This document shows, in pieces, positions 10,381 through 35,451 of a stretch of DNA of 64,000 nt (positions are counted from its first letter, which is position 1; each line of letters opens with the position of its first letter). This DNA comes from Blastocatellia bacterium (GTDB taxonomy: Bacteria; Acidobacteriota; Blastocatellia; UBA7656): NCBI GenBank assembly GCA_045807765.1, contig JBJMGU010000232.1, positions 1,618-65,617 of the forward strand, in the 5' to 3' direction. The position numbers and the translations under genes were made by a program. The notes under the pieces are model-generated. The model did not search any database, was not told where the DNA came from, and saw only the letters and a program-made list of their open reading frames with translations.

Positions 10381-10452
10381 AGTGCTGAGTGATGCGTGAT
10401 GAGTGACGAGTAAGAGCCGCCTACTCATTACTCTCATTCATCACGCATCACT
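10381..10452. repeat. Junction element J1: inverted arms of tandem 7-mers (AGTGATG type)
   Basis: AGTGATGCGTGATGA (10388-10402) is the exact reverse complement of TCATCACGCATCACT (10438-10452). Overlaps the stop at 10448. Confidence 0.85.
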
Positions 10453-11639: not shown

Positions 11640-11762
11640 AGGGGCTAGGGACTAGGGGCTAGGGGCTAGGGAGGGATTAAAGCCGAAAGTCTGCGGCTAA
11701 GAGCAATCAAACGGATGACGACAAATCCAACCTTCTCTTCCCTAGCCCCTAGTCCCTAGTCC

Positions 11763-11765
<3 letters not shown>
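11640..11765. repeat. Junction element J2: inverted arms of tandem GGGGCTA/GGGACTA
   Basis: Left arm 11640-11672 (AGGGGCTAGGGACTAGGGGCTAGGGGCTAGGGA), right arm 11739-11765 (TCCCTAGCCCCTAGTCCCTAGTCCCTA), which contains the carboxylase stop codon. Confidence 0.9.
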
Positions 11766-13828: not shown

Positions 13829-13908
13829 GTCAGTTGCCAGTTGCCAGTCGCCAGTTGTTGGTTATTGCTACTTCATCATTCAGGGAAAACTGATAACTGG
13901 CAACTGAC
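13829..13908. repeat. Junction element J3: inverted arms of tandem CAGTTGC
   Basis: GTCAGTTGCCAGTTGCCAGTCGCCAGTT ... AACTGATAACTGGCAACTGAC, beginning 2 nt after the hup stop. Confidence 0.85.
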
Positions 13909-18712: not shown

Positions 18713-18785
18713 GATGCGTTTGAAAAGAAGAATAAGATGGGCAAGGTTGAGATGAAACTTTAGGTTTTGAGGGCAGTCTCGTTGC

Positions 18786-19226: not shown

Positions 19227-19271
19227 CCGGGACGCTCATTCGACAATCAAACGGACGACGATGACGCCGCA

Positions 19272-20315: not shown

Positions 20316-20454
20316 GTTATCAAGCCCAGACCTTCTAGCCCCAAACTCGACCGGACCCGCAGGTGGTCTTTCGTGGCGCGTCCCGGCTTCACGCCCGTTA
20401 GTGGAGCCACCACCCGAGAGCCTTATGCCCGGATCAACCTTTGAGGCAGATGTT

Positions 20455-20817
20455 ATGACTAATCGATTCTATCCTGACAAACAGATTCACAACCGGCAGG
20501 TGGCGCGGCCCGTGAGTGGGCGCATCTTCGTCTGGTTGACGGTGCTGGCGCTGGCCGGCGCCTTGCTGTCGTGCGGTTTCGTGATCAGCGCGCGCCAGCA
20601 CTTTGAAGCCATCTCAACCGGCTATGAGAACGAAGACCTGCGACGGCAGGCGGCGCAGATGGAAGAGAAGCGCCGCCAGCTTGAGCTGGAGTATGCGCGC
20701 CTGGCGTCACCTGTTGAAATCGAAAAGCGCGCGCAGAAGGTCGGGCTGGCCCAACCGCAGAACCAGCCGACAGGCATCCGCCGCCCGACCAACGTCGAGG
20801 CAAAGCCGAAAAGGTAG
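20455..20817 (+). CDS. ftsL: Cell division protein FtsL
   Basis: Short TM plus coiled coil ending LASPVEIEKRA. Position between rsmH and ftsI. Confidence 0.8.
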   Translation: MTNRFYPDKQIHNRQVARPVSGRIFVWLTVLALAGALLSCGFVISARQHFEAISTGYENEDLRRQAAQMEEKRRQLELEYARLASPVEIEKRAQKVGLAQPQNQPTGIRRPTNVEAKPKR

Positions 20818-20823
20818 ATAACC

Positions 20824-20910
20824 GGTGATGAGTGTCGGATGTTAGGTGTTGGGTTCCGGTAACCACTCAACATCTAACACCCAATACCCGATACCCATCA
20901 CCCAACACCT
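20824..20910. repeat. Junction element J4 (ftsL/ftsI): inverted arms of degenerate GGTGTTG/GGTGATG 7-mers
   Basis: GGTGATG AGTGTCG GATGTTA GGTGTTG ... CAACATC TAACACC CAATACC CGATACC CATCACC CAACACC. Confidence 0.8.
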
Positions 20911-20919
20911 GATAGACCA

Positions 20920-22980
20920 ATGATGAGAACCAACAGCCAGGTATCCGCTAAGCGCTTCATCGTCATCCAGGTCCTGGTGATCCTCTGGGTCGTGGTGATC
21001 GGCTATCGCCTCGTCAAGTTGCAGGTCAAAGACCATGAAACGCTACGCGCCCGCGCCGAGCGTCAGCAGCAGGCGGCGATTGACCTGAGCCCGATGCGTG
21101 GCATCGTTTATGACCGCAACGGCAACGAACTGGCGCGCTCGGTCGAAACCCGCTCGCTTTACGCCTCGCCCGCCGAGATCAAAGATGCCGAGCAGGTCGC
21201 CGACCGCCTGGCCGACCTGCTCGACGTTGACCGTGATGCGCTTTACAAACGGCTGACGTCGAAAAATCTAGTACTGGTCGCGGTCAAGCGCAAGCTGACC
21301 GACAAAGAAGCGGCGCAGGTCGAAGCCTTGCACCTCGGCGGGCTGCGATTTGTCAATGAGATGAAACGCAGCTATGTCGCCGGTCCGACCGCCGCCCACG
21401 TCCTCGGCTTTGTCGACATCGAAGAGCGCGGCCAGGGCGGGCTTGAGCAGGCGTATGACAAGCAGATTCGCGGCAAGGGCGGGCGGCTGGTCCTCGACGT
21501 GGATGCGCTCAACAAGTCCTACGATCACTCGCTCGAAGAATCGATCCCCGGCGCCAACGTGACGCTGACGATTGACGTGCTGATCCAGCACTATGCCGAG
21601 CAGGCGCTCACCGACGCTATCCGTCAGCACCACGCGCGCGGCGGCACCATCGTCTTGATGCGGCCTGCGACCGGCGAGATTCTGGCGCTCGCTAACTATC
21701 CAACCTTCGACCCGAACAACGTCAGCGAGTCGGACGACAGCGAGCGGCGCAATCGCGCCATCGAAACATCATTTGAGCCGGGCTCGATCTTCAAGCTGGT
21801 CACCTACTCCGCGGCGCTCGAAGAGAAGCTGATCCGCCCGGACACGCGTATCGATTGCGGCAACGGCCAGATTCGCATCCTCGACCGCGTCATCCACGAT
21901 GGCCACTATGGCGTGCTGACCGCTGCCCAGGCGCTCGCCAAATCATCGAACGTCGCCGCCATCAAGATCGGCATGATGTTAGGCAAGGAGCGGCTGGGGC
22001 ATTACATCGAAGAGTTCGGATTTGGCCGCCGCACCGGCATCGAGCTGCCGGCGGAGGCGCGCGGCCTCTTCCGTCCGGCGAGCGAGTGGGGGCCGACCAG
22101 CATCGGCTCGATCCCTATGGGGCATGAGGTCGGTGTCACCGCCGTGCAGGCCATTGCCGCTTACGCTTGCATTGCCAATGGCGGCGAATATGTCAAGCCG
22201 CACATTGTGAGCCGTATTACAGATGCGGCAGGCAACGTCATCGAAGAGCCGTCTGCCGAGCATCGCCGCATCGTCAGCCAGCGCACTGCTGACACCATCA
22301 AACTGATGCTCGAAGGCGTGGTGATGCAGGGCACAGGCAAGGCGGCGCGGGTCGGCGGCTACAGCGCTGCCGGTAAGACCGGCACGGCGCAGAAGATCGA
22401 TGAGCAGACCAGGCGCTATTCGCAGACGAAATACGTCGCTTCGTTCGCCGGCTTCGCGCCGGTCGAGAATCCTGAGATCGCCTGCATCGTTTCGATAGAC
22501 GAGCCCGTCGGCGCGCATCACGGCGGCGATGTGGCGGCGCCGGTCTTCGCGCGCGTCGTCACCGACGCCCTGCGCACGCTCGGCGTGCAGCCGGCGGATG
22601 AGCCGCCCGCGCAAATGGTCGCCGCCGACACGCACGTTTACAACGTCGCCGAGCTGATGCCCGACAGCCGGGTCGCAGCGCGCGTTGAAAGAGACGAAAC
22701 GCGGCCCGCGCTCGATGTCGCCAGTAACCCGATGCCGGCGGCCATGCCATCGCGCGGCGGCATCGTCATGCCTGACCTGATGGGCTTGAGCATCCGCGAG
22801 GCGCTCGCCTTGTGCGCGGCACGCGGATTGAAGATCAAGCCGAGCGGCGAAGGCGTCGTCGCTCTGCAAAACCCGTCGCCCGGCGCGCTGGTCGCACAAG
22901 ACACAGTCTGCATGGTGAAACTGGCAAAGCAGTATGTGCGCAAAGAGGCCATCGCCCGCTCACCCGGCGGGCGGCGGTGA
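20920..22980 (+). CDS. ftsI: Penicillin-binding protein FtsI/PBP3 with PASTA domain
   Basis: RGIVYDRNG, EPGSIFK (SxxK), SSN, KTGT, C-terminal MPDLMGLS. Confidence 0.93.
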   Translation: MMRTNSQVSAKRFIVIQVLVILWVVVIGYRLVKLQVKDHETLRARAERQQQAAIDLSPMRGIVYDRNGNELARSVETRSLYASPAEIKDAEQVADRLADLLDVDRDALYKRLTSKNLVLVAVKRKLTDKEAAQVEALHLGGLRFVNEMKRSYVAGPTAAHVLGFVDIEERGQGGLEQAYDKQIRGKGGRLVLDVDALNKSYDHSLEESIPGANVTLTIDVLIQHYAEQALTDAIRQHHARGGTIVLMRPATGEILALANYPTFDPNNVSESDDSERRNRAIETSFEPGSIFKLVTYSAALEEKLIRPDTRIDCGNGQIRILDRVIHDGHYGVLTAAQALAKSSNVAAIKIGMMLGKERLGHYIEEFGFGRRTGIELPAEARGLFRPASEWGPTSIGSIPMGHEVGVTAVQAIAAYACIANGGEYVKPHIVSRITDAAGNVIEEPSAEHRRIVSQRTADTIKLMLEGVVMQGTGKAARVGGYSAAGKTGTAQKIDEQTRRYSQTKYVASFAGFAPVENPEIACIVSIDEPVGAHHGGDVAAPVFARVVTDALRTLGVQPADEPPAQMVAADTHVYNVAELMPDSRVAARVERDETRPALDVASNPMPAAMPSRGGIVMPDLMGLSIREALALCAARGLKIKPSGEGVVALQNPSPGALVAQDTVCMVKLAKQYVRKEAIARSPGGRR

Positions 22981-23041
22981 CCACTTAAAGTCACAAGAGA
23001 ACCAGGGGCGTGTAAAGAAAGATTGAAAGGCAATTGCCGAC

Positions 23042-24544
23042 TTGAAGCTCGCGGATTTAGCCAGGGAGATTGACGCGGTCGCCACCAGCGGGCGGCTCGA
23101 CCGCGAGGCGCGCGATGTCACACACGATTCGCGCGCCGTCGCGCCGGGGTCGGTTTTTGTCGCCATTCGCGGCGCCAAGACTGACGCGCACCGCTTCATT
23201 CCACAAGTCATCGAGAGCGGCGCGGTCGCCATCATCTCTGAGCTGAGCCGCAACCAGACCGACATTGATACGGCGGAGATCGGCTGGATTCAAGTCAGCG
23301 AGGCGCGCGCGGCGCTGGCTCGCGCGGCGGCAGCGATTCACGGTCATCCGTCTCGCCGGCTCAAACTCGTCGGCGTCACCGGCACAAACGGCAAGACGAC
23401 GACCGCGCATCTGGTTGATTCGATCATTCGCGCCGCCGAAGGCACATCGGCGATGTTCGGCACGATTCAACATCGCATCGGCGATCAAGCGGCGACTGCG
23501 CATCACACGACGCCCGAAGCCGCGGACATTCAGCGCATGCTGGCGCAGGCCGTCGCTGCCGGTTGTCGCTCGGCGGTGATGGAAGTCTCATCACATGCCA
23601 TCGAGCTGCACCGCGCCGATGGCTTGAAGTTCGCTGTCGCCGTCTTCAGCAACCTGACGCGCGACCATCTTGATTATCATCAGACGATGGAGAGCTACTT
23701 CGCGGCGAAAGCCAAGCTCTTCAACGGAACGATTGATCCGCGGCTCGGCGTATCGGTCATCAACATCGATGACGAATATGGCCGCCGTTTGCTTGGCAGC
23801 GCCAGGGGGCAAATCATTACTTATGGCTTCAGCCCGGATGCCGATGTGCGCACCGACCGCTTCGACTTGTCGCCGCGCGGCCTGTCCTACACGGCGACGA
23901 CGCCGGCGGGTCAGGTTGAGATGGCTTCGCCGCTTGTCGGTCGCTTTCACGTCTACAATACGCTGGCGGCGATTGGCGCAGGACTGGCTCTAGGAGCCAA
24001 GTTAGAGGTGATCGCGCAAGGCATACGCGATTGCCGCACGGTCGCGGGACGCTTCGAGCAAGTGACGATTGACGACGGGCACGAGCCGGGGTTCGCGGTC
24101 ATCGTTGATTACGCGCATACAGACGATGCGCTCAAGAACGTCTTGCAGACGGCGCGCGAAGTCGCCGGCCAGGGACGCGTCATTACCGTCTTCGGATGCG
24201 GCGGTGACCGCGACCGCACGAAGCGCGCGCCGATGGGCGAGATTGCCGCAACGCTTTCGGATGTTGCCATCGTGACGTCGGACAATCCGCGCAGCGAAGC
24301 GCCGCTGGCGATCATTGCCGACGTTGAAGTCGGTTTGCAGAAAGCCGGGCGCGAATACGTGAATCTGCCTGACCGCCGCGAAGCCATCTTTTGCGCCATC
24401 AACGAGGCGCGTGACGGCGACGTGGTGGTGATCGCCGGCAAAGGGCACGAGACGTATCAAATCCTCGGCGATAACACGATTCACTTTGACGATAAAGAAG
24501 TGGCGCGCGAGGCGATGACGGAAAGGCGCGGCGCAAGCCGTTAG
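23042..24544 (+). CDS. murE: UDP-MurNAc-tripeptide ligase (meso-DAP type)
   Basis: GTNGKTT, MEVSSH, DHLDYH, DYAHT, DNPR (DAP-specific), AGKGHE. Confidence 0.96.
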   Translation: MKLADLAREIDAVATSGRLDREARDVTHDSRAVAPGSVFVAIRGAKTDAHRFIPQVIESGAVAIISELSRNQTDIDTAEIGWIQVSEARAALARAAAAIHGHPSRRLKLVGVTGTNGKTTTAHLVDSIIRAAEGTSAMFGTIQHRIGDQAATAHHTTPEAADIQRMLAQAVAAGCRSAVMEVSSHAIELHRADGLKFAVAVFSNLTRDHLDYHQTMESYFAAKAKLFNGTIDPRLGVSVINIDDEYGRRLLGSARGQIITYGFSPDADVRTDRFDLSPRGLSYTATTPAGQVEMASPLVGRFHVYNTLAAIGAGLALGAKLEVIAQGIRDCRTVAGRFEQVTIDDGHEPGFAVIVDYAHTDDALKNVLQTAREVAGQGRVITVFGCGGDRDRTKRAPMGEIAATLSDVAIVTSDNPRSEAPLAIIADVEVGLQKAGREYVNLPDRREAIFCAINEARDGDVVVIAGKGHETYQILGDNTIHFDDKEVAREAMTERRGASR

Positions 24545-24556
24545 CTGGCGCACAAC

Positions 24557-26020
24557 ATGAAACTTAGCGACGTAGCAAAGCGACTCGGCGCGGCGGTTCG
24601 CGAATCACTCGGCGAGCGCGAGCCGCTCGGCTACTCGATTGATTCGCGCACGATTCGCGCCGGCGATGTCTACTTTGCCATTCGCGGCGAGCGCCATGAC
24701 GGTCATCAGTTCGTCACCGATGTCTTGAGCCGGGGCGCGATTGCCGCAGTCGTGTCGTGTGAGTTTCAATCCGCGCAAGCTGACCGCCTGCGCCGCGATG
24801 CAGCGATGCTGATCGGCGTAGACGATACGCTCGCGGCCTTGCAGCAGCTTGCTTCTTCGGTGCTGACTGATTGGCACGGGCAAGAGGTCGCCGTCACCGG
24901 CAGCATGGGCAAGACGACGACGAAAGAGATGACGGCGGCGGCGCTCGGCGCTGCCGGTCGCGTCATCAAGACGACCGGCAACCTGAACAACGACTATGGC
25001 CTGCCGCTGTCAATTTTGAAGATGGAGAGCGACGGCGCGCACACCACCGATTTTGATTACGCGGTCTTTGAGATGGGCATGAATCACAAAGGCGAGATCG
25101 CCCGGCTCGCCGAGATTGCTCCGCCTGATTGCGGCGTCGTTACGGTGGTCGCGCCGGTTCACCTTGAGTTCTTTGATTCGGTGGACGGCATCGCCGAGGC
25201 GAAAGCTGAACTGGTCGCGGGCATCAAGACGGGCGGCATCGCCGTGCTTAACGCCGACGATCCGCGCATCGCTCGCATGCGCGAAGGGCGTGATGACATT
25301 GCTTATCGAATGTTCGGCATCGAAAGCCGAGCCGACATCACGGCGCGCGACATTGAATCCGACGGCTTGAGCGGCACGCGCTTTCGTCTGCTGACGCCGC
25401 GCGGCGAAACCGCGGTCAGGCTGGTGGTCGCGGGCCGCCACAATGTTTATAACGCACTCGCCGCCGCAGCGGTCGCCGATTACTATAACGCGCCGCTTGC
25501 GGGCATCGCCGAAGCGCTCGGTCAATCCGCCTCGCCACGGATGCGCGGCGAAGTCGTGCGATTAACCAATGGCGTCACGCTCGTAGACGATTCGTACAAC
25601 TCGAATCCGCGCGCCTTGATTGAGATGGTCAAGACCGTCAGCGCCAAGCGCGAGGTTGAGCGCCGTGTTGTGGTCGCCGGTGAAATGCTCGAACTGGGTG
25701 AGAGCGGCGCGGCGCTGCACCGTGAAGCGGGCCGGCAGATCGCCGGGCTCGGCATCGATCTATTGATCGGCGTGCGCGGGCTGGCGGCAGAGATCATCGA
25801 AGGCGCACGCGAAGCCGGCATGTCGGCTGATGCAACGATCTTTTGTGCGACGCCCGAAGAAGCGGCTGAAGTCTTGCAGCGCCAGGCGCGCAGCGGCGAT
25901 CTCGTTCTCGTCAAAGGCTCGCGCGGCGTGAAGACCGAGATTGTTGTCGAGCGAATGAAGCAGTGGTCAGTTGCCAGTAATCAGTTGCCAGTTGCCAGTC
26001 GCTCTCTGCAACAGAAATAA
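24557..26020 (+). CDS. murF: UDP-MurNAc-pentapeptide ligase
   Basis: SIDSRTI, TGSMGKTTTKE, EMGMNH, DDSYNSNP, VKGSRG. The last ~19 aa derive from repeat J5. Confidence 0.95.
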   Translation: MKLSDVAKRLGAAVRESLGEREPLGYSIDSRTIRAGDVYFAIRGERHDGHQFVTDVLSRGAIAAVVSCEFQSAQADRLRRDAAMLIGVDDTLAALQQLASSVLTDWHGQEVAVTGSMGKTTTKEMTAAALGAAGRVIKTTGNLNNDYGLPLSILKMESDGAHTTDFDYAVFEMGMNHKGEIARLAEIAPPDCGVVTVVAPVHLEFFDSVDGIAEAKAELVAGIKTGGIAVLNADDPRIARMREGRDDIAYRMFGIESRADITARDIESDGLSGTRFRLLTPRGETAVRLVVAGRHNVYNALAAAAVADYYNAPLAGIAEALGQSASPRMRGEVVRLTNGVTLVDDSYNSNPRALIEMVKTVSAKREVERRVVVAGEMLELGESGAALHREAGRQIAGLGIDLLIGVRGLAAEIIEGAREAGMSADATIFCATPEEAAEVLQRQARSGDLVLVKGSRGVKTEIVVERMKQWSVASNQLPVASRSLQQK

Positions 26021-26076
26021 CTACGCATCAGGCAACCGATAACCGATAACTGGTCACTGGCAACTGGCAACTGACC
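25961..26076. repeat. Junction element J5 (murF/mraY): inverted arms of tandem CAGTTGC
   Basis: GGTCAGTTGCCAGT (25965-25978) pairs with ACTGGCAACTGACC (26063-26076). About six units per arm. The left arm lies inside the murF ORF. Confidence 0.9.
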
Positions 26077-26086
26077 GAGAGGGCTG

Positions 26087-27193
26087 ATGTTCTACTACTT
26101 GAATTTTCTCAGGGACAAACACGACAGCCTGTCATTCCTGCGCGTGTTCGACTATGTGACTTTTCGCACGGCGTGGGCGGCGATTACGGCGCTCGTCATC
26201 AGCCTGATGTTCGGCTCGCGGATGATCGCTATGCTGAAAGAGTTTCAGATCGGCCAGCAGATTCGCGAAGAAGGCCCGCGCTCGCACCAGTCGAAGCGCG
26301 GCACGCCGACGATGGGCGGCGTGCTGATCATCCTCTCGGTCGCCATCTCGACGCTGCTGTGGGCGAACCTGTCGGTGATTTACGTATGGCTCGCCGTCTG
26401 CGCAACACTCTGCTACGGCGCGATTGGCTTTGCTGACGATTATCTGAAGATCAAGCGCCGCCACAACCTCGGGTTGACCGGCAGGCAGAAACTGTTCTTT
26501 CAATTTCTGGTCGCCTTCGCCATCGGCATCGTGCTGCACTACTTCACGACCTATAGCACGCGGCTGAGCCTGCCGTTCTTCAAGAACATCACGCCGGAGA
26601 TATTCTGGCCGGCTTACCTGCTGATCTTCGCGCCACTGGTGCTGGTCGGTTTTTCGAACGCCGTGAATCTGACGGATGGCCTCGACGGGCTGGCGATCTC
26701 GGTGACGGTGGTGACGAGCGCGGCGCTCACCGGGTTTACCTATGTCAGCGGCGATGCGCGCTTCGCCGAGTACCTCGGCTTGCAGCACAACCCCGGCATT
26801 ATCGAGTTGACCATCTTTTGCGCGGCGCTGATGGGGGCGAGCCTCGGCTTTCTATGGTTCAATGCGCCGCCCGCCGAAGTGTTCATGGGCGATGTCGGCT
26901 CGCTCGGCATTGGCGGCGCGATTGGCATTGTCGCCGTGCTGATCAAGCAGGAGTTTTTGCTGGTGATGATCGGCGGCGTCTTTGTCATCGAAGCGATGTC
27001 GGTCATCTTACAGGTTGCCTCGTTCAAGGTCTTCAAGCGGCGCGTCTTTAAGATGGCGCCGTTGCATCATCACTTTGAACTGATGTTCCCGGTTGAGCAG
27101 TCGCGGCGCATGGAGCCGAAGCTGGTCTTTCGCTTTTTGATCGTGGCGATTCTCTTTGCCTTGCTCAGCCTGACGACGTTGAAGCTACGCTGA
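26087..27193 (+). CDS. mraY: Phospho-MurNAc-pentapeptide transferase
   Basis: [39 protein letters not shown]. Confidence 0.97.
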
Positions 27194-27197
27194 AAGC

Positions 27198-27266
27198 AGG
27201 GGCCAGGGGTCAGGGGACAGGGGGCGGTTTTTCCGCCCCGGCCCCCGCCCCCGGCCCCCGACCCCT
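27198..27266. repeat. Junction element J6 (mraY/murD): inverted arms of tandem AGGGGYC
   Basis: TGA-AAGC-AGGGGCCAGGGGTCAGGGGACAGGGGGCGG-TTTTT-CCGCCCCGGCCCCCGCCCCCGGCCCCCGACCCCT-ATG. Confidence 0.85.
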
Positions 27267-28691
27267 ATGAACGTTGCCGGTAAAAACATTCTGGTGGTGG
27301 GCATCGCGCGCAGCGGCGTGGCGGCAGCGCGCTTGCTCGCGGCGCGCGGCGCAAACGTCACGGCGAACGATGTGAAAGACGAATCGCACCTGGCACACGA
27401 AGCCGATGAGTTGCGCGCCGCGGGCGTAAGACTCGCGCTCGGCGGCCATCCCAAATCGTTGTTTACGCAGGTTGATTTAATTGTGCTCAGTCCCGGTGTG
27501 CCCGCCGATTTGCCGGCGCTTGAAATCGCGCGAGGCAGTGGCGTTGAAATCATCAGCGAGCCGGAGCTTGCAGGCCGCTTCCTGCGCGGGCGCATGATCG
27601 GCATTACCGGCTCGAACGGCAAGACGACGACGACGGCGCTCACCGGCGAATTGATGAAAGCGGCGGGCGCCGAGGTCATCGTCGGCGGCAACATCGGCAC
27701 GCCGCTCACGAGCTTGATTGAACAATCGAATGACCAGACGTGGGCAGTGGCCGAGCTGTCGAGCTTTCAGCTTGAGATGATTGACAGCCTGCGGGTTCAC
27801 GTCGCCGTCGTGACCAACATCACGCCGGATCATCTGGATCGGCACGGCACGTTTGAAAACTATGTCCGCGCCAAGCACCGCATCTTTCGCAATCAAACGG
27901 CTGACGACTTCGCGGTGCTGAACGGTCACGATCAAGCGATTGACGAAATGGTGAGCCAGCACGGCGTGCCGTCACGCAAGGTCTGTTTCAGCTCGCGGGG
28001 GCCGCAAACGATGGCCGGCGGCGCAGCAGATATCTATGTGCGCGAAGGCTGCGTGTTCACGAGGCTGGTGGCCGACCGGCAAAGCGAAGTCGAGATTATG
28101 CCGCTTGCCGATATTCCATTGCGCGGCATGCACAACGTCGAAAACGTCATGACGGCGCTGGCCGCGGTGTTCTGTGCGATGCAGACTCGGCTGGCCGATC
28201 TGCCGGTGCTGATCGCGGCGGTCAAGCAGTTTCCCGGCGTCGAACATCGCATCGAGTACGTCGCCGAGATTGACGGCATCAAGTTTTATAACGACTCGAA
28301 GGCGACGAATGTCGACTCGACCGTTAAAGCTCTGGAAGCGTTCGAGCGTAACGTCATCGTGATCCTCGGCGGCAAAGACAAAGGCAGCGATTACACGACG
28401 CTCGCGCCGCTCGTTAGCCGTCGCGTCAAGCAAGTCGTGTTGCTTGGTGCCGCAAGCGACAAGATCGCCGCGCAGCTCGAAGGCGTGCGCCCCATGACGC
28501 GCGCCGCTTCGATGCAAGATGCGGTTCAGCAATCCATGCAGGCGGCAGAGGCAGGCGACACCGTGTTGCTCGCTCCCGCCTGCGCCAGCTTCGATATGTT
28601 CGACAACTACGAACATCGAGGCCGCGTCTTTAAGCAGGAAGTGATGAATCTTGCCAGCCGCTCAGAAGCGGCGGCGCAAAGGAAAGAGTGA
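27267..28691 (+). CDS. murD: UDP-MurNAc-L-Ala--D-Glu ligase
   Basis: SPGVP, GSNGKTTT, ELSSFQL, DHLDRH, NDSKATN, PACASFDMF. Confidence 0.96.
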   Translation: MNVAGKNILVVGIARSGVAAARLLAARGANVTANDVKDESHLAHEADELRAAGVRLALGGHPKSLFTQVDLIVLSPGVPADLPALEIARGSGVEIISEPELAGRFLRGRMIGITGSNGKTTTTALTGELMKAAGAEVIVGGNIGTPLTSLIEQSNDQTWAVAELSSFQLEMIDSLRVHVAVVTNITPDHLDRHGTFENYVRAKHRIFRNQTADDFAVLNGHDQAIDEMVSQHGVPSRKVCFSSRGPQTMAGGAADIYVREGCVFTRLVADRQSEVEIMPLADIPLRGMHNVENVMTALAAVFCAMQTRLADLPVLIAAVKQFPGVEHRIEYVAEIDGIKFYNDSKATNVDSTVKALEAFERNVIVILGGKDKGSDYTTLAPLVSRRVKQVVLLGAASDKIAAQLEGVRPMTRAASMQDAVQQSMQAAEAGDTVLLAPACASFDMFDNYEHRGRVFKQEVMNLASRSEAAAQRKE

Positions 28692-28752
28692 GCGACAAGC
28701 GATAAGTGATAGGTCAGCCCAGCTTATCACTCATCACTGGTCACTCGTCACT
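28687..28752. repeat. Junction element J7 (murD/ftsW): inverted arms of AGTGATA/AGTGACC type 7-mers
   Basis: AGCGACA AGCGATA AGTGATA ... TATCACT CATCACT GGTCACT CGTCACT. Confidence 0.8.
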
Positions 28753-28757
28753 GAGTT

Positions 28758-29936
28758 ATGGCGATTGATTACCGAACCGCGACACCACGATGGAAGCGCG
28801 AAGCCGACTGGCAGGCGCGCCGCGCCGCCGAGTCGCGCTCCGCCGGGCGCGAGCTGGGCGTGGATAGAATCTTGCTGCTCATCGTGCTGGCGCTGACTTT
28901 GTTCGGCGCGGTGATGGTCTACTCGGCGTCGGCGATCATCGCCGAGAAGAGCTTTGGGAATCAGTTTCACTTTCTCTACAAGCAAGGAATGTGGGCGCTG
29001 GTCGGACTGGTCGCTATGGCCATCGGCATGAAGATCGATTATCGCCATTACAAGCGGCCCGGCGTCATCTTCTCGTTGCTGGCCGTGACCGCCGCGATGC
29101 TCGTCGTCGTGATGTTTTTGCCGAAGGTGAACGAAACACATCGCTGGATTCGCTATGCCGGCTTTTCATTGCAACCGTCGGAGATCGCCAAACTGGCTCT
29201 CACAGCCTATCTGGCGTACCTGATCGAGAGCCGCGAGCGCGAGCTGGACGATTTCAAGCGCGTCTTCATTCCGGCAACTGTGGTCGGCGGATTCATCATT
29301 GTGATGGTCGCTGCCGAGCCCGACCTGGGGACGGCGATGGCGCTCGGCATCGTCTACTTGACGGTGACGTTTTATGCCGGCGTGCCGCTGCGCTATCTGG
29401 CGCTGGTCGGCGCGGCGGCACTGCCGGGGCTTGCGGGGATGCTGTTGCTGGTGCCCTGGCGCTTGCAGCGACTGATGGACTTTCTCGACCCGTGGAAGAA
29501 CCAGACGACCTCGAGTTTTCAGGTGGTGCAGTCGTTGATCGCTGTCGGCAGCGGCGGCGCGCAGGGCGTCGGCTTCGCGCAGGGCAAGCAGAAGTTGTTT
29601 TACCTGCCGGCGCCACACACAGACTTTATCTTTGCGGTGATTGGCGAAGAACTGGGGCTGATCGGCTCGGTGGCAGTCGTCGGCATGTTCGCGCTGCTGG
29701 CGTGGCGCGGCTTCCGCGCGGCGCGCTCGGCACCCGACCTGTTCGGGCAGTTGTTGGCGACCGGGCTAACGGTGATGATCATCGCCCAGGCGTTTTTTAA
29801 CATCAGCGTGACGCTGTCGCTCGTGCCGACCAAAGGCATACCGCTGCCGTTCATCAGCTCGGGCGGCTCGTCGCTGGCCATCTCGCTGTTCGCAGCCGGC
29901 GTGCTGCTGAATGTGTCGAAGCACGAAAAAGCGTGA
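28758..29936 (+). CDS. ftsW: SEDS peptidoglycan glycosyltransferase FtsW
   Basis: MVYSAS, RWI...QPSEIAK, EPDLG, HTDFIFAVIGEELG, PTKGIPLPFISSGGSS. Confidence 0.95.
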   Translation: MAIDYRTATPRWKREADWQARRAAESRSAGRELGVDRILLLIVLALTLFGAVMVYSASAIIAEKSFGNQFHFLYKQGMWALVGLVAMAIGMKIDYRHYKRPGVIFSLLAVTAAMLVVVMFLPKVNETHRWIRYAGFSLQPSEIAKLALTAYLAYLIESRERELDDFKRVFIPATVVGGFIIVMVAAEPDLGTAMALGIVYLTVTFYAGVPLRYLALVGAAALPGLAGMLLLVPWRLQRLMDFLDPWKNQTTSSFQVVQSLIAVGSGGAQGVGFAQGKQKLFYLPAPHTDFIFAVIGEELGLIGSVAVVGMFALLAWRGFRAARSAPDLFGQLLATGLTVMIIAQAFFNISVTLSLVPTKGIPLPFISSGGSSLAISLFAAGVLLNVSKHEKA

Positions 29937-29937
29937 A

Positions 29938-30053
29938 GCCAGGAGTCAGGAGTCAGAAGTCAGGAGTCAGAATGGAAGGCAAAGTCTCTACTCTTGAACA
30001 GACACTTATAAACGGACTTTATTCTGACTTCTGACTCCTGGCTTCTGACTCCT
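29938..30053. repeat. Junction element J8 (ftsW/murG): inverted arms of tandem GGAGTCA/GAAGTCA
   Basis: 33-nt arms 29941-29973 and 30021-30053 pair with 4 deviations, 3 of them G-U wobbles. ATG follows immediately. Confidence 0.93.
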
Positions 30054-31166
30054 ATGAGAGTAATCATCGCAGCCGGCGGCACCGGCGGGCACATCTATCC
30101 GGGCGTGGCGATTGCCCGAGAGTTTAAGCGGCGCGACGCGGCAACCGATATTCTTTTCGTCGGCACACCGCGTGGCCTGGAATCGAAGATCGTGCCGCGC
30201 GAAGGCTTTCAGCTTGAGATGATTCAGGTCGGCGCGCTCAAAGGCGTTTCGCTCTTTGCCAAAACCAAATCGCTCGCCGGCTTGCCCTTGAGCTTTGTCG
30301 CGGCGCTCGGCATACTGCGACGTTTCAAGCCGGACGTGGTCATCGGTGTCGGCGGCTATTCGTCAGGGCCGACGTTGTTGATGGCGGCGCTCAAGCGCAT
30401 TCCGACGATGATCGTCGAGCCGAACGCGATGCCGGGTTTTACGAACCGCGTGCTGGCGCGCTTTGTCGGCGCAGCCGCCTTGACCTTTGAAGACGCGCTT
30501 AAGTATTTCGGCAAGCGCGGCGTCGTGACCGGCAACCCTGTGCGCGGCGATTTTGCCGGCATTCAGAAGAAAACGCGCGGCGCGCGCTTGCATGTTCTCG
30601 TCTTCGGCGGCAGCCAGGGGGCGCACGCCATCAACGTGGCGATGACCGAAGCGGCGGGCTTGCTCACGGCGCAAAAGGAACGGATGGCTATCGTCCATCA
30701 GACGGGTGAGAAGGATTACAAAATGGTCGAGCGCGCTTACAACGAAGCGGGATTGACGGAGGCAGAAGTGAAGCCGTTCATTCACGACATGGCGGCGCGC
30801 TTTCGGTGGGCGGACGTGTTGATTTGCCGGAGCGGCGCAACCACCGTGGCCGAAGTCGCGGCGGCGGGCAAAGCGGCGATCTTCGTCCCCTTCCCTTTCG
30901 CCACCGACGATCATCAACGCAAGAACGCCGAAGCGTTCGAGCGCGTCGGCGCCGCCCGCATGATTTTGCAGAAGGACCTGACGCCGGCGCGGCTCGCCGA
31001 GGCGTTACAGCAGTTGCTTGATAACCCCGGCGCGCTTGATCAGATGGAAGCGGCCAGCCGCCAGCTTGGGCGGCCCGATTCCGCAGCGCGCGCCGTGGAT
31101 TTAGCAATGAAGGTGGCCAGCGGCAGGAAGCAGGAAGCAGGAAGCAGGAAGCAGGAAGCAGAATGA
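30054..31166 (+). CDS. murG: Lipid II GlcNAc transferase
   Basis: GGTGGHIYP, GGYSS, TGNPVR, GGSQGA, RSGATT, DHQRKNA. C-terminal GRKQEAGSRKQEAE is repeat-derived. Confidence 0.96.
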   Translation: MRVIIAAGGTGGHIYPGVAIAREFKRRDAATDILFVGTPRGLESKIVPREGFQLEMIQVGALKGVSLFAKTKSLAGLPLSFVAALGILRRFKPDVVIGVGGYSSGPTLLMAALKRIPTMIVEPNAMPGFTNRVLARFVGAAALTFEDALKYFGKRGVVTGNPVRGDFAGIQKKTRGARLHVLVFGGSQGAHAINVAMTEAAGLLTAQKERMAIVHQTGEKDYKMVERAYNEAGLTEAEVKPFIHDMAARFRWADVLICRSGATTVAEVAAAGKAAIFVPFPFATDDHQRKNAEAFERVGAARMILQKDLTPARLAEALQQLLDNPGALDQMEAASRQLGRPDSAARAVDLAMKVASGRKQEAGSRKQEAE

Positions 31167-31237
31167 AAGCGGGAAGCCAAGCGAGTGCGCTTATCGCGCC
31201 TCCGTTTTTATTCTGACTTCTGACTCCTGACTTCTGA
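31123..31237. repeat. Junction element J9 (murG/murC): chimeric arms, (GCAGGAA)5 left and (TTCTGAC/TCCTGAC)n right
   Basis: Left arm 31123-31164 lies inside murG, right arm 31210-31237. Only the inner CAGAATGAA/TTTATTCTG ends pair well. Confidence 0.85.
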
Positions 31238-31248
31238 ATACTCAAGAT

Positions 31249-32628
31249 ATGCTTTTTCGTAGAGTCAGACACATTCATTTCGTCGGCATTGGCGGCATCG
31301 GCATGAGCGGCATCGCCAAGGTGCTGCTGTCGCTCGGCATGAACTTTCGCGTTACCGGCAGCGATGCCAAACGGTCATCCATCACCGACAGCCTCGAAGA
31401 GATGGGCGCAACCATTTGGGAAGGCCATGCCGGCGAGCACATTGCCGGCGCCGACGTTGTCGTCTGCTCGTCGGCGGTGCGCAATGACAACCCCGAAGTG
31501 ACCACAGCGCACCAGCGATTGATTCCCGTCATCCCGCGCGCCGAGATGTTGGCAGAGCTGATGCGCCTCTACCGCTACGGCATCGCGGTCGCCGGCACGC
31601 ATGGCAAGACGACGACGACTTCAATGATTTCGCACATGATGACGCTGACCGATTTCGACCCGACAATTGTCGTTGGCGGGCGCGTGACGACGCTGGCGTC
31701 GAATGCCCAGGTCGGTCACGGCGACTACATCGTCGTCGAGGCGGACGAATCCGACGGCTCGCTGCTACAACTGACGCCGACGATTGCCGTGCTGACCAAC
31801 ATTGACGCGGATCACCTGGATTACTTCAAAGGTGGCATTGAAGAGATCAAAGAATGCTTCGTGGACTTCGCCAACCGCGTGCCGTTTTACGGAACGATTG
31901 TGCTGTGCTTAGACGACCAGAACGTCCAGGCGATTATTCCTGATATCTCGCGGCGCAAAGTCAGTTACGGGCTGGCGGCGCAGGCCGATGTGTCGGCATG
32001 GAACATTCAACTGAACACCGCCTTCGGCTCGGAATTTACGGTGCGGGCTTTCGGCAAAGAAGCGGGGCTGGTCAAGCTCTGGGTGCCGGGCCTGCACAAC
32101 GTCTACAACGCGATGGCGACCATCGCCGTCGGGCTCGATCTCAATATCGAGTTTGACCGCATCGTCGAGGCGCTCGCCAGCTTTCGCGGCGCCGAGCGGC
32201 GCTTTCAGATCAAAGGCGAGAAGCAGGACATTCTGGTGGTGGATGATTATGGTCACCACCCGACTGAGATTAAAGCGACGCTGTCAGCGGCGCGCACTTC
32301 GGGCCGCCGCGTCGTCACCTTGTTTCAGCCGCACCGCTATACACGAACGCGTGACCTGCTTGATGATTTCGCGCGCTCGTTTTACGGCGCGGATGTCTTG
32401 CTGGTGATTGACATCTACGCCGCCAGCGAAGACCAGATCGAAGGCGTCAACAGCGGTGTGCTGGCCGAGCAGATTGAGCGCTTCGGCCATCGGCACGTCG
32501 AATACATCGGGCCGCTATCGAACGCGGCCAACCGACTGAAAGAGATCGTCCAGCCCTACGATCTCGTCTTAACGCTCGGAGCCGGCAACGTCTATCAAGC
32601 AGGAGAAGAGTTGCTGAAGATTCTTTGA
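31249..32628 (+). CDS. murC: UDP-MurNAc--L-alanine ligase
   Basis: [43 protein letters not shown]. Confidence 0.97.
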
Positions 32629-32629
32629 T

Positions 32630-32694
32630 AGGAAGCAGGAAGCAGGAGGCAGGACTGTCTACGCAGTAAACTGGCTCCTGGCTCCTGCCTCCTG
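32630..32694. repeat. Junction element J10 (murC/ftsQ): inverted arms of AGGAAGC/AGGAGGC
   Basis: AGGAAGCAGGAAGCAGGAGGCAGGA ... CTGGCTCCTGGCTCCTGCCTCCTG. Confidence 0.85.
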
Positions 32695-32710
32695 AGTGGG
32701 AGGTGGCGCT

Positions 32711-33730
32711 TTGGCAACAGCTCAACGGAGTGAGCCCAGAGGGCGCGCACAGGTCGTCGCGCCGCGTGCGCCGCGTCGGTTACAGCAGTCGCGCTCGCGC
32801 GGCAGCAGCGTGCGACTCGGCGAGCGATTGAAATCGGCAGCGGTGCTGGTCAAGCCGGCTGTGGTTTTAATCACCATCGCGCTGTTGATCGTCGGTTATA
32901 ACGCGCTGGCCGGCTCACGGCTCTTTGATCTGCATTATATCAATGTCAGCCAGGCCAGCCCGGCTTTGCAGACCGAGATCGAGCAAGCGGTGAAGCGCGC
33001 CGTCGGCCAGACGAAACTGCTCGATGTCAATCTGGCGGTATTGAAGGAGAAGATTGAAAAGCTGCCGCAGGTGCGCACGGCCACGGTGGCGCGATTGCTG
33101 CCCGATGGCCTCTCCGTGCAGATCGTTGAGCGCCACCCGGCGGTGCTGGTGCGACGGCAATCCGTCTCGCAGGAAGAAAAGCTTGTTTGGCTTGATGAAG
33201 ACGCGGTGGAGATGGGCGAGTTCGCCGCCGTCAACGCCAGCGCTCAGACCGGCGAGATGCGCGAAGTGCCGCCCATCGCTAAGGGCTTTGAAGACGGCAA
33301 CCGCTCGCAGGCGGCGGTCAATGCCGACCGCGAGCGCATCGCGGTCTACAAGAAGTTAGAGAGTGAGCTGGGCGACGGCGCCTCGTCGCTGTGGAATTTG
33401 ATTGACGAGATCGATCTGCGCGACGTCAAGGACGTAAACCTGAGCCTCGCCCGCCCGCACGTTCTGATTCACGTCGGCAGCACAGACTTTCGCAAGCGCT
33501 TCGAAATGGCGCTGACGATCATTCAGGCGGCCAAGAGCGGCGACGCCGAAGCCTTGCGCCGTATGCGGACGCCTGAGCAGAGAATTGAACAATTGATCCA
33601 GAACGCCAACAATTTCAGCTTCATTGACACGGCGCGCTCGGATCGTATCGTTGTAAACTTCGCCTCCCCCGGCGTAACCCAGGCCCCGGTGCAGCAGGAA
33701 ACTAAACCGACACAGGGCAAGAAGAAGTGA
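32711..33730 (+). CDS. ftsQ: Cell division protein FtsQ/DivIB
   Basis: TTG start after GGGAGG, TM helix, POTRA-like LPQVRTATVARLLPDGLSVQIVER, IDLR. Position before ftsA. Confidence 0.85.
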   Translation: MATAQRSEPRGRAQVVAPRAPRRLQQSRSRGSSVRLGERLKSAAVLVKPAVVLITIALLIVGYNALAGSRLFDLHYINVSQASPALQTEIEQAVKRAVGQTKLLDVNLAVLKEKIEKLPQVRTATVARLLPDGLSVQIVERHPAVLVRRQSVSQEEKLVWLDEDAVEMGEFAAVNASAQTGEMREVPPIAKGFEDGNRSQAAVNADRERIAVYKKLESELGDGASSLWNLIDEIDLRDVKDVNLSLARPHVLIHVGSTDFRKRFEMALTIIQAAKSGDAEALRRMRTPEQRIEQLIQNANNFSFIDTARSDRIVVNFASPGVTQAPVQQETKPTQGKKK

Positions 33731-33822
33731 TAAGTGATGAGTGATGAGTGATGATTGATGAGACAGTACAGCAGTCACACGCTTGCTTTTTACTCATTAC
33801 TCATCACTCGCCACTCATCACT
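33726..33822. repeat. Junction element J11 (ftsQ/ftsA): inverted arms of tandem AGTGATG
   Basis: AGTGATA AGTGATG AGTGATG AGTGATG ATTGATG ... CATTACT CATCACT CGCCACT CATCACT. The first unit contains the ftsQ stop. Confidence 0.9.
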
Positions 33823-33849
33823 GAATGGACAGCCGGAGGATGAACAAAA

Positions 33850-35085
33850 ATGGCTAAGGGAAGCAGACACATTGCCGCGCTCGACATTGGCACCACGGAG
33901 GTGCGCGCCGTCGTCGGCGAGATTGCGGATAACGATAAGCTCGAAATCATCGGCGTCGGGCGCGCGCCATCACGCGGCGTTCGCAAAGGCGTCGTCGTCA
34001 ATATTGAAGCGACCGTTGACGCCATCAAACAGGCGGTTGAAGAGGCTGAGATGATGGCCGGCGTGCCGATTGATGCAGCGTACGTCAGCATGGGCGGAGC
34101 CCAGGTGCGCGGCATGAATTCGCGCGGCGTCATCGCCATCAGCCGTCGCAACCGCGACATCACCGAAGAAGACGTTTACCGCGTCATTGATCAGGCGCGC
34201 GCCATTAGCGTGCCGACCGACCGCGAAATCGTTGACGTGCTGCCGCAGGAGTTCACCGTAGACGGCCAGGATGGCATCGGCAACCCCATCGGCTTTCTCG
34301 GCATGCGGCTTGAAGCTGCTGTCCATGTGGTCACCTCGCCCATCACGGCGCGGCAGAACATCGTCACCTCGGTGAACCGGGCCGGCATCCACGTTACCGA
34401 CACGGTGGTCAACCACGTTGCCGGCGGCGAAGCGACGCTGACACCGGACGAGAAAGAGTATGGCGCCGCGGTGCTCGACATGGGCGCAGACATCACGAAC
34501 CTGACGATCTTTTTCCGCGATGCGGTGCGTCACACGGCGGTCTTTCCGATGGGCGGCAACCACTTCACCAACGACATCGCCGTGGGCTTGCGCACGCCAG
34601 TGCCCGAAGCCGAGCGCATCAAGCAGCACGAAGGCTGCGCGCTGGCCGGGCTGATGGCCGAAAGCGAGCGCAGTCGCATGGTCGAAGTGCCGTCAGTGGG
34701 CGGACGCCCGGCGCGCATGCTCAGCCGGCAGATCCTTTGCGAGATTTTGCAGCCGCGCGCCGAAGAGATTTTCTCGCACGCCGCGGAAGAGATTCAGCGC
34801 GCCGGCTTCGAGCGGCAAATTCTCTCAAGCGTTGTAATGATCGGCGGCGGCGCGCTGATGGATGGTGTCGTCGAGATGGCTGAGCAGGTGCTCGACCTGC
34901 CGGCGCGTCACGGCATGCCGGACTTCGTCGGCGGGCTGACGGGCGAGATTGACAGCCCGGCTTTTGCGACGGTCGTCGGCGCTCTGCTCTACGGTTTTCA
35001 CAAACAAATGAACTTGAAAAAGATTCATTCGCTAAAAGATGGCGCGCCCAAGCAAGAGGGCTTTTGGAAGCGCTGGTTTCGTTAA
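33850..35085 (+). CDS. ftsA: Cell division protein FtsA
   Basis: LDIGTT, GVRKGVVVNIE, GGNHFTNDIA, AERIK, C-terminal amphipathic FWKRWFR. Confidence 0.96.
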   Translation: MAKGSRHIAALDIGTTEVRAVVGEIADNDKLEIIGVGRAPSRGVRKGVVVNIEATVDAIKQAVEEAEMMAGVPIDAAYVSMGGAQVRGMNSRGVIAISRRNRDITEEDVYRVIDQARAISVPTDREIVDVLPQEFTVDGQDGIGNPIGFLGMRLEAAVHVVTSPITARQNIVTSVNRAGIHVTDTVVNHVAGGEATLTPDEKEYGAAVLDMGADITNLTIFFRDAVRHTAVFPMGGNHFTNDIAVGLRTPVPEAERIKQHEGCALAGLMAESERSRMVEVPSVGGRPARMLSRQILCEILQPRAEEIFSHAAEEIQRAGFERQILSSVVMIGGGALMDGVVEMAEQVLDLPARHGMPDFVGGLTGEIDSPAFATVVGALLYGFHKQMNLKKIHSLKDGAPKQEGFWKRWFR

Positions 35086-35124
35086 AAAAAATTTCACGAT
35101 GACGCAGACAGTGGGAAAAAAAGG

Positions 35125-35153
35125 TTGTCGGGGTAAAGCGGCTGTGCTACTAT
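35125..35153 (+). promoter_or_regulatory. Putative internal promoter upstream of ftsZ
   Basis: TTGTCG, 17 nt, TACTAT with an extended -10 TG. Confidence 0.5.
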
Positions 35154-35451
35154 GCGGTGTGTCTTCAGAAGCTCGGTCTACCACATATTGTAGCAACCGG
35201 CTGCCAGCCTCAACGGCACTGTTAGGAGAACCCCTCACCGGACGGGAGCGCCACAAACGCACCCGCAGGAGTTGGACGTGTGCGTTTGCGTCGCACCATC
35301 CGGCGGCAAGTTACGCCGCCAGCCTGGCAGTGTTTGAAAATAGAAGTCGCACACACGGAGAAGTTCACGCGAGTTAGACGGCCCGGGGTAGCCGCATCTC
35401 CGCCCTCGCTCGCTCGGTTGCTAATGCTCGGTTTGCAGGAGGCACAAACGA

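Follow-up and report, generated by a model that had tools for sequence, protein, structure and literature searches.

The stretch analysed here, called the window, comprises 64,000 nucleotides of a Blastocatellia bacterium genome (assembly GCA_045807765.1, contig JBJMGU010000232.1, positions 1,618 to 65,617 of the forward strand) and contains a division and cell wall (dcw) cluster in which hairpins built from seven-nucleotide repeats occupy many of the gene junctions. The named relatives of its FtsW place the host in Blastocatellia (Acidobacteriota). Fourteen genes, assigned from the open reading frame (ORF) listing and from homology to relatives, lie on the + strand in the order mraZ, rsmH, ftsL, ftsI, murE, murF, mraY, murD, ftsW, murG, murC, ftsQ, ftsA, and ftsZ, giving 13 junctions. 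An earlier note on this DNA had described hairpins at eight of the 13 junctions, seven of them in an unbroken run from murF to ftsA, and folding bears out that description: the occupied junctions are ftsL/ftsI, murF/mraY, mraY/murD, murD/ftsW, ftsW/murG, murG/murC, murC/ftsQ, and ftsQ/ftsA. The coordinates of that description, 20818-33849, are the span from the first to the last hairpin-bearing junction. The minimum free energies of the eight hairpins range from -22.5 to -57.1 kcal/mol, with z-scores of -2.5 to -7.1 against 200 dinucleotide shuffles. None of the 200 shuffles folds equally well for seven of the eight, and 3/200 do so for the GC-rich mraY/murD hairpin, whereas the element-free control gaps ftsI/murE and mraZ/rsmH have z-scores of +1.16 and +0.88, respectively. 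These hairpins are eight local copies of a genome-wide class, not a dcw-specific device. The class is old, dispersed, and rapidly renewing, and it holds post-stop positions in tight operons.

Each arm of a hairpin is a tandem array of 7-nt units, present in approximately 3-5 copies, and the opposite arm is the complementary array. For example, AGGAGTC x4-5 stands opposite GACTCCT x4-5 at ftsW/murG, and an AGTGATG x5 array occurs at ftsQ/ftsA. The name proposed for the class is STRR-like "heptamer-array hairpin", after the short tandemly repeated repetitive (STRR) sequences of cyanobacteria. Among the junctions examined, the heptamer element is absent from mraZ/rsmH, rsmH/ftsL, ftsI/murE, murE/murF, and ftsA/ftsZ. 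For comparison with relatives, 80 FtsW-anchored loci were used, the five closest of which are designated L001-L005.

The eight elements, all on the + strand, differ in unit, in stability, and in how closely they approach the flanking genes. The ftsL/ftsI hairpin (20824..20902; -39.4 kcal/mol, z -4.13) consists of degenerate GGTGTTG-type heptamers and their complement, with a period-7 array at 20864-20909; at the orthologous junction, L003 has no element (4 nt), and other units are found in L001, L002, and L004. The murF/mraY hairpin (25965..26076; -49 kcal/mol, z -5.01) is made of CAGTTGC units, for which Tandem Repeats Finder (TRF) reports arrays at 25968-25999, the 5' arm, lying within the last murF codons, and at 26048-26073, the 3' arm. 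The murF stop codon (26018-26020) falls in the loop, and a GAGAGGG resembling a Shine-Dalgarno (SD) sequence lies between the stem and the mraY start. The mraY/murD hairpin (27199..27258; -49.9 kcal/mol, z -2.51) has CAGGGGN units and no SD, and murD starts 8 nt past the stem; in L001 and L003 this junction is an element-free ATGA stop/start overlap. The 5' arm of mraY/murD contains four GGGG runs spaced 3 nt apart, a textbook G-quadruplex motif; AGGGGCT and TAGGGAC, common units elsewhere in the genome, are also G-quadruplex motifs, and most unit types are not. The murD/ftsW hairpin (28694..28742; -22.5 kcal/mol, z -3.39) is formed by GCGACAA/GTGATAA-type units, and its orthologous junction is empty (10 nt) in L001 and carries a related unit in L003.

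The most stable of the eight hairpins lies at ftsW/murG (29941..30053; -57.1 kcal/mol, z -7.06), where AGGAGTC/AGAAGTC x4-5 and the complement form a 33-nt inverted repeat that is 88% complementary; the last base of the stem directly precedes the murG ATG. The murG/murC hairpin (31123..31237; -51.4 kcal/mol, z -4.03) has GCAGGAA x5.6 in its 5' arm and TTCTGAC units in its 3' arm, with TRF arrays at 31123-31161 (100% matches) and 31211-31237. The murG stop (31164-31166) lies within this structure, the 5' arm encodes the MurG C-terminal tail, and the loop, by eye, is like the conserved loop core of the AAGTCAG/AGGAGTC family. CAGGAAG/CAGGAGG units make up the murC/ftsQ hairpin (32629..32694; -39.8 kcal/mol, z -5.64), downstream of which the SD GGGAGG is followed by a TTG at 32711. 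At ftsQ/ftsA (33733..33822; -47.8 kcal/mol, z -5.42), AGTGATG units begin at the ftsQ stop and form a 30-nt inverted repeat, 87% complementary, with the SD GGAGGA downstream of the stem; L001-L005 show related heptamer units of the nnAGTGA type at this junction. Two of the elements, murF/mraY and murG/murC, extend beyond the gaps, with their 5' arms inside the ends of the upstream coding sequences. The resulting repeat-encoded C-terminal tails, ...QWSVASNQLPVASRSLQQK in MurF and ...SGRKQEAGSRKQEAE in MurG, differ among close relatives. Repeat invasion has thereby, in effect, shifted the stop codons of two essential genes, murF and murG.

The genome containing the window (designated G000) amounts to 6.1 Mb in 280 contigs with 60% G+C, and our own simple ORF/codon-usage caller predicts 4918 genes in it, at 89% coding. 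Our own array detector finds 902 period-7 arrays, compared with 14 in shuffled sequence, and 173 and 201 arrays of periods 6 and 8, respectively. TRF agrees: of its 4718 rows, 1256 have period 7, and periods 6 and 8 have 381 and 508, respectively. As a side observation, the 201 period-8 arrays exceed the 22 found in shuffles, and 100 period-10 arrays are present. When a hairpin is called as an array with a complementary array within 160 nt, the genome contains at least 453 paired hairpins, along with 142 unpaired arrays. All 206 adjacent same-unit pairs of TRF arrays are inverted; none is direct. The median arm is 25 nt and the median element span 96.5 nt; the genome uses 54 unit types, and the number of units per element is variable. 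Single linkage of units by one substitution puts 441 of the 453 elements in one group, a figure to be read with the high rate of chance linkage among 54 G-rich heptamers. The class thus combines over-representation of 7-nt tandem repeats, intergenic and in-operon location, and complementary stem-forming arrays, as expected of STRR-like elements. The earlier note overlooked that the repeats have a 7-nt period, that they form a genome-wide family, and that analogues are known.

Almost all elements are intergenic (420/453): 330 lie between co-directional genes (of 3306 such intergenic regions), 55 between convergent genes (of 669), and 35 between divergent genes (of 663). A further 20 lie inside called genes and 13 at contig edges. 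The dcw cluster is dense in hairpins, yet not unique. The automatic detector recovers hairpins at six of its 13 junctions, a higher density than the 330/3306 of co-directional junctions genome-wide (binomial p = 9e-4). A stretch of the S10 ribosomal-protein operon on a short contig (C193, 3.9 kb) has three hairpins and one single array in six junctions, and a 20-kb stretch of contig C84 with the rpoN-hpf-rapZ cluster and nuo genes has eight hairpins. The longest run, also of eight hairpins, is on C185 (57 kb), in a tandem set of about 22 paralogous genes that encode about 800 aa each; most of these genes are followed by a heptamer hairpin, with alternating unit types. This run apparently reflects gene duplication in which gene and element were copied together.

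Elements between co-directional genes are anchored to the stop codon of the upstream gene. Among these 330 elements, 123 have the stop within the 5' arm or overlapping it, 177 have it 0-15 nt ahead of the arm, and 30 have it farther away; in 300/330, then, it lies within 15 nt of the hairpin or overlaps it. The distance from the end of the 3' arm to the called start has a median of 16 nt and a long tail. In junctions that retain at least 40 nt of spacer, the median position of the element, as a fraction of the way from stop to start, is 0.05. Elements between convergent genes (n = 55) are mostly bracketed by both stops, the nearer at a median of -1 nt and the farther at 7 nt; placement between divergent genes is not tight. 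The stop codon is often the unit's own TAG or TGA. The excess of TAG among neighbouring stops (106/266, compared with 1126/4747 genome-wide) arises from units that contain TAG and provide the stop.

The order of the arms is equally regular. Of the 453 elements, 438 begin with the G-rich arm, 5 with the C-rich arm, and 10 with neither; two relatives have the G-rich arm first in 25:0 and 19:0 cases. For ordinary 11-bp inverted repeats of the genome, the corresponding counts are 426 and 278. Since an arm-loop-arm' structure retains its arm order on reverse complementation, the rule applies to either strand, and inversion cannot alter it. For the same reason, the observation that the 5' arm is G-rich in 321/330 elements was rejected as a measure of orientation to the gene. 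The simplest account of the arm order is an invariant inherited from founder elements. Selection may possibly add to it, as a C-rich arm before a start would carry no SD-like or start-like words.

Across relatives, sites are kept and units are replaced. Heptamer arrays occur in the dcw clusters of most Blastocatellia loci (FtsW identity of at least 62%) and of some Pyrinomonadaceae and other Acidobacteriota, and they are absent from nearly all loci at FtsW identity of 48% or less (Terriglobia and other phyla). Some relatives (e.g., L014) have long, structured, GC-rich gaps without clean periodicity. The ftsW/murG junction is the most often occupied in Blastocatellia dcw loci above the same 62% threshold, and more than 10 different units occur there: AGGAGTC in this genome and in L003, GATTTTA in L002, and GATGAAT in L004 and L005. 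In L001 the junction is element-free, with a TGATG overlap. The copy in L003 is orthologous, with a loop that is related by eye. In the concatenated tree, this genome and L001 are sisters (87% nucleotide identity), and L002 and L003 fall outside at 84%. L003 lies outside the pair yet shares the ftsW/murG element, so the element was most likely cleanly lost in L001. At murC/ftsQ, the six genomes (this one and L001-L005) have five different units. The comparison of junctions across relatives that the earlier note proposed thus supports conservation of position with turnover of the unit.

The same pattern extends beyond dcw. Fifty-six orthologous junctions in four regions (dcw, rpoN/nuo, C73, and C231) were compared with genomes G001-G003, giving 118 comparisons. 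Junctions occupied here are occupied in the relative in 45/62 cases, compared with 7/56 for junctions empty here (odds ratio 18.5). At the 45 co-occupied junctions, the units differ by 0 substitutions in 13, 1 in 5, 2 in 13, 3 in 8, and 4 in 6; a distance of at most 1 is found in 18/45, as against about 7% of random unit pairs. Agreement varies by genome, from 10/14 for G003 to 2/15 for the sister G001. Array density is similar, at 158 and 215 per Mb in 400-kb samples of relatives and 148 per Mb here, but repertoires are species-specific: the commonest units are AATGATG (16%) and AGGGGCT (12%) in G000; AAGTGAC (32%), ATTTTGG (13%), and AGTGGCC (11%) in G001; and ACAGGAT (10.5%), CCGGGGG (9%), and AGTGGTC (9%) in G003. 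In G001, the single unit GGGTGTT occupies junctions that hold several different units in G000 and G003, which points to replacement by an expanding family and not to independent drift in place. Concerted change is also seen: at one junction of the C84 cluster, AGGAGTC in this genome corresponds to AGGATTC in G002 and G003 in all units of both arms. It is unlikely that the arrays are an assembly artefact, as independent metagenome-assembled genomes of other studies carry arrays at the same junctions. From 0.11 to 0.45 of the words sampled from 25900-33900 were found in 20 soil and rhizosphere DNA runs.

Similarity among loops ties elements at distant sites to one another. Loop similarity is shared by 127 loops, with families of 50, 28, 15, and 15 members, and the shared loop cores are about 50 nt long and occur in up to 50 dispersed copies. 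The orientation of these cores to the flanking genes, which is a valid test of orientation to transcription, is near random: 31:19, 12:16, 4:11, and 12:3 for the four families. Entire elements from this genome have matches at many sites of G002 and G003, on either strand, and far fewer such matches are found for G001 among those listed. The signs of a conventional mobile element are missing. Matches of 3 nt between the flanks at the stem borders number 9/448, with about 7 expected, and no target-site duplication of 4 or 5 nt was found. TGA/TGAA direct repeats, suggested by filled and empty dcw pairs, were considered as duplications and rejected upon this negative genome-wide flank test; the filled/empty pair at ftsW/murG can be explained without duplication. 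A search of the 142 unpaired arrays of this genome for an autonomous parent detected no complementary array pair 300-6000 nt apart, and no pair of heptamer arrays enclosing a gene was found in it. Both hallmarks of miniature inverted-repeat transposable elements, a target-site duplication and a related autonomous transposase element, were therefore lacking in these tests.

A transposase of another kind is present. The genome has a single match to PF01797 (Y1_Tnp), at C210:15587-16063. This Y1 gene, which resembles IS200 and the REP-associated tyrosine transposases (RAYT), is flanked on both sides by a different family of palindromes that are like repetitive extragenic palindromic (REP) sequences, comprising a GCCCCGTAGGGGC-type hairpin and TATAAACAT (G000:C210:14198-17542, locus L081). 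The GCCCCGTAGGGGC/TATAAACAT family also has copies in some heptamer-hairpin loops, as well as in the murF/mraY gap of L003, which measures 192 nt. The REP/RAYT pattern itself does not extend to the heptamer class, as the Y1 gene is not flanked by heptamer arrays and the 54 unit types share no palindrome consensus.

At the transcript level, the hairpins do not resemble terminators. A T-rich tail follows 35/330 elements, compared with 8/330 control windows, leaving 295/330 without one. None of the eight dcw hairpins has a T-tail, and none was found by the terminator scan of 18500-37000, in which the sole strong intrinsic terminator lies after ftsZ (36618-36652; an 11-bp GC-rich stem, then TTTTTGTTT). 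This canonical terminator indicates that the organism does use U-tailed terminators, unlike the heptamer hairpins; the combination of a GC-rich stem and an immediate U-tract is not found in the dcw elements. The promoter scan gives three sites, with 4.0 expected in shuffles, and the gaps beside the dcw hairpins are too short for promoters of the essential downstream genes. Together, the lack of T-tails, the terminator placed only after ftsZ, and the short gaps lend indirect support to the earlier suggestion that the elements do not block transcription. A search of Rfam 15 returned no match at the gathering score and five sub-threshold matches to hairpin models of microRNA precursors, at 22-32 bits where the gathering scores are 96-135. 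Stem mismatches on the sense strand comprise 275 A.C and C.A and 202 G.U and U.G pairs, and the lack of a G.U excess, contrary to the prediction from selection for RNA pairing, fits arms that are kept alike by a DNA-level process. The genome encodes RNase III, so that cleavage of the stems is possible but no more than that. Five of the eight dcw starts (ftsI, murD, ftsW, murG, and murC) have no SD between stem and start, and these lie within about 15 nt of the stem end. As an SD core is present in just 36.5% of genes genome-wide, SD-less starts are common in any case; among genes starting 13-25 nt past an element, 56% have an SD core.

The reading that we regard as somewhat more probable than all others combined is that the hairpins are repeats that maintain themselves or spread, and whose effects on RNA are incidental or co-opted. 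A DNA-level process, such as slippage, templating from arm to arm, copying between sites, or replacement of resident copies, would keep the arrays near-perfect. The elements would settle in permissive post-stop positions of tight operons and persist where they are tolerated. They would then be transcribed within the polycistronic mRNA as stems of 20-35 bp without a U-tail, through which the polymerase would read; we infer this read-through because essential genes follow and the remaining space is too short for promoters. The stems may halt 3' exonucleases, protecting the 3' end of the upstream cistron, and may be cut by RNase III. Moreover, a ribosome terminating at the 5' base of a stem would open its 3' base, unmasking or bridging to the adjacent start. 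Such unmasking or bridging may be attractive for the five SD-less dcw junctions, as the element-free state in relatives is an ATGA or TGATG overlap. These effects on the mRNA would be by-products, possibly co-opted, and not the reason for each copy. The earlier note had further suggested that adjacent junctions mostly use different units and that the difference guards against cross-pairing and recombination. The observation holds loosely, with the exception that murG/murC shares an arm type with each neighbour, its 3' arm using the ftsW/murG unit and its 5' arm the murC/ftsQ unit. The explanation is not upheld, as units are shared by 6/141 pairs within 5 kb, compared with 8% expected from unit frequencies (p = 0.06), and chance alone would make neighbours differ in 92% of cases, given 54 unit types.

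Selection for operon punctuation, in which the RNA fold is kept, the unit is free, and RNase III cleavage, an exonuclease block, a Rho shield, or coupling sets Mur/Fts ratios, is a tentative, less probable alternative. The mRNA segmentation and stoichiometry put forward in the earlier note belong to this reading. Such selection would account for occupancy that is conserved across species while the unit changes (45/62 vs 7/56), for the more than 10 units at ftsW/murG, the most often occupied Blastocatellia junction, and for arms that stay complementary through a two-sided change (AGGAGTC/GACTCCT here, AGGATTC/GAATCCT in G002 and G003). At 20-35 bp, the stems match the size of RNase III substrates, and the enzyme is encoded. 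The SD-less starts close to a stem at five of eight junctions, the coupling-type ATGA/TGATG overlaps at the empty junctions of relatives, and the SD core in 56% rather than 36.5% of genes starting 13-25 nt past an element are also in keeping with it, and for the STRR hairpins that lie between hupS and hupL, roles in stability or coupling have been suggested (excerpt of PMC2670836). However, close relatives do well with empty junctions at mraY/murD (L001 and L003), ftsW/murG (L001), and ftsL/ftsI (L003), the transcribed strand has no excess of G.U over A.C mismatches, and loop cores occur in either orientation. Elements also lie between convergent and divergent genes and within coding 3' ends, and the genome-wide shifts of repertoire between sister species resemble family sweeps, not selection site by site. 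By itself, positional conservation cannot separate selection from homing into occupied sites or from saturation of permissive junctions. If instead each array arose by slippage alone, a 7-nt unit would expand beside a stop and be templated to the other arm, with no movement between sites. Heptamer simple sequence repeats are over-represented in many bacteria, with slippage proposed as the cause (excerpt of PMC4692102); the first unit often contains the gene's own stop, no target duplication is found, and orthologous units are often 0-2 substitutions apart. Nevertheless, such a local process is improbable in view of the loop cores of about 50 nt common to up to 50 dispersed copies, of the whole elements that match many places in other genomes, and of GGGTGTT in G001 at sites with diverse units in G000 and G003, on which independent drift would not converge.

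Movement by RAYT, as for the REP elements of enterobacteria and pseudomonads, would suit intergenic palindromes found in hundreds of copies after stops and without target duplications, and one single-copy Y1_Tnp gene is present. We consider it very unlikely nonetheless: that gene is flanked by GCCCCGTAGGGGC/TATAAACAT palindromes instead of heptamer arrays, a single sequence-specific Y1 enzyme would not readily account for 54 unit types, and REPs are not made of tandem units. A bolder joint reading, to which we likewise give little credence, is that an active copying process renews the post-stop arrays, by homing or by telomere-like synthesis from a template in trans, and that the hairpins are obligatory punctuation that links stop to start for re-initiation and marks where RNase III cuts. 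It would fit the invariant G-rich strand running 5' to 3' toward the centre, as if two arrays had been extended toward each other, as well as arrays that are near-perfect in every species and repertoires that shift genome-wide between sisters at fixed sites. Several considerations weigh against self-maintaining or spreading repeats, the reading that we favour. At core-gene identities of about 84-87%, high retention of occupancy and near-perfect arrays could equally mean selection. The orthologous comparisons are non-independent, with three related genomes per junction, and the four regions were picked as element-rich. Variants are not equally frequent in the two arms, which confounds the wobble test, and distances to start codons are approximate, having come from our own gene caller. 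No copying mechanism was identified in this genome, whose lone Y1 transposase is flanked by a different REP family. Finally, read-through, processing, and coupling at the hairpins are, all three, what we infer.

Other members of the family lie in the window outside dcw, with strand not assigned: AGTGATG units at 10388..10452 (array detector), TAGGGAC/TAGGGGC units at 11646..11765 (array detector and TRF), and CAGTTGC units at 13829..13908 (array detector and TRF). The ftsA/ftsZ spacer (35086-35451) is 366 nt long, and 296-398 nt in Blastocatellia relatives. It holds a non-heptamer hairpin at 35245-35297, and a heptamer element was found there in no relative examined; the spacer may be a conserved ftsZ leader or promoter region. 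Within the ftsQ start region (32696-32713), the TTG at 32711 with its SD GGGAGG is a likelier start than the GTG at 32696. Relatives retain GTGGGAGGT, L002 begins at the equivalent TTG, and the codon-usage caller places the start at 32810. In more distant Acidobacteriota (L020, L027, L032, L034, L036, and others), murC and ftsQ are separated by 900-1470 nt that presumably hold an additional gene, for instance murB or ddl; neither this genome nor its close relatives have it at that place.

Cyanobacterial heptamer repeats close to gene ends were described decades ago, and those of Xanthomonas have been on record for years. To our knowledge, no mechanism or function has been established for either. 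The Blastocatellia lineage offers an unusually clean system, with hundreds of hairpins, dozens of units, a strict arm order, and anchoring to stops. Its conserved sites, at which units are swapped across species, make the renewal of arrays and their roles in mRNA processing or coupling testable. The elements also matter for annotation, as they create false C-terminal tails (here in MurF and MurG) and shift stop codons. In addition, they probably fragment short-read assemblies of soil Acidobacteriota; the present assembly is in 280 contigs, with the S10 operon on a contig of 3.9 kb.

Among known systems, the REP sequences and bacterial interspersed mosaic elements (BIME) of enterobacteria are similarly abundant extragenic palindromes that lie in operons after stop codons and are transcribed within the mRNA. 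REP/BIME elements stabilise the upstream mRNA against 3' exonucleases, and REPs within about 15 nt of a stop codon reportedly lower translation of the upstream gene. Unlike the heptamer hairpins, REPs have a fixed consensus, and their arms are not tandem repeats. They are tied to RAYT genes (excerpt of PMC2817692), whereas the lone RAYT-like gene here belongs to another repeat family.

The following comparisons draw on excerpts of the cited papers and are limited to them. TAACTGA heptamer repeats occur in Beggiatoaceae, cyanobacteria, and Bacteroidetes (MacGregor 2015, PMC4679880). They are direct repeats just upstream of starts, with one inverted set among 170, and a post-transcriptional role has been proposed for them (PMC4679880). 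Like the arrays described here, they are intergenic, ribosomal-protein operons included (PMC4679880); unlike them, they consist of a single unit and, in these excerpts, form no hairpins. The literature searched, which under-covers subscription journals, contains no description of such elements in Acidobacteriota. Several features of the Blastocatellia elements were not seen reported for known cases in the excerpts: the number of units per genome, the strict arm order, the stop donated by the unit, the invasion of essential gene ends, and the shifts of repertoire between sister species at conserved sites.

The GGGAATC repeats of Xanthomonas form 70-75 "convergent" inverted pairs per genome, 89-93% of them intergenic (Rehm et al. 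2015, PMC4692102). They lie at a mean of 28 nt from the upstream ORF, compared with 160 nt from the downstream one, are under-represented between divergent genes, and are transcribed, with no function found (PMC4692102). The same gene pairs carry them in two species, with length and sequence varying (PMC4692102). These repeats thus share with the Blastocatellia class G-rich heptamers, inverted pairing, intergenic location near the upstream ORF, and sites that are kept with variation. In contrast to the one unit of Xanthomonas, the class described here has dozens of units in species-specific repertoires, most of which cannot form G-quadruplexes, and, so far as the excerpts go, it differs in that its elements abut or supply the stop codon and fill the junctions of essential operons.

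The STRR hairpins of cyanobacteria are the closest in kind, as they too are intergenic hairpins of 7-bp units, for example between hupS and hupL, where a role in stability or coupling has been proposed and the function is given as unknown (PMC2670836). Calothrix has three heptanucleotide families, and the Nostoc GGGGA(C/T)T repeats are reported to pair only rarely (PMC4692102). The likeness is drawn by kind and not by descent; the units are different words, and the host belongs to another phylum. Here, in contrast, inverted pairing is the rule (453 paired vs 142 single), and the 54 unit types are many more than in the cyanobacterial case.

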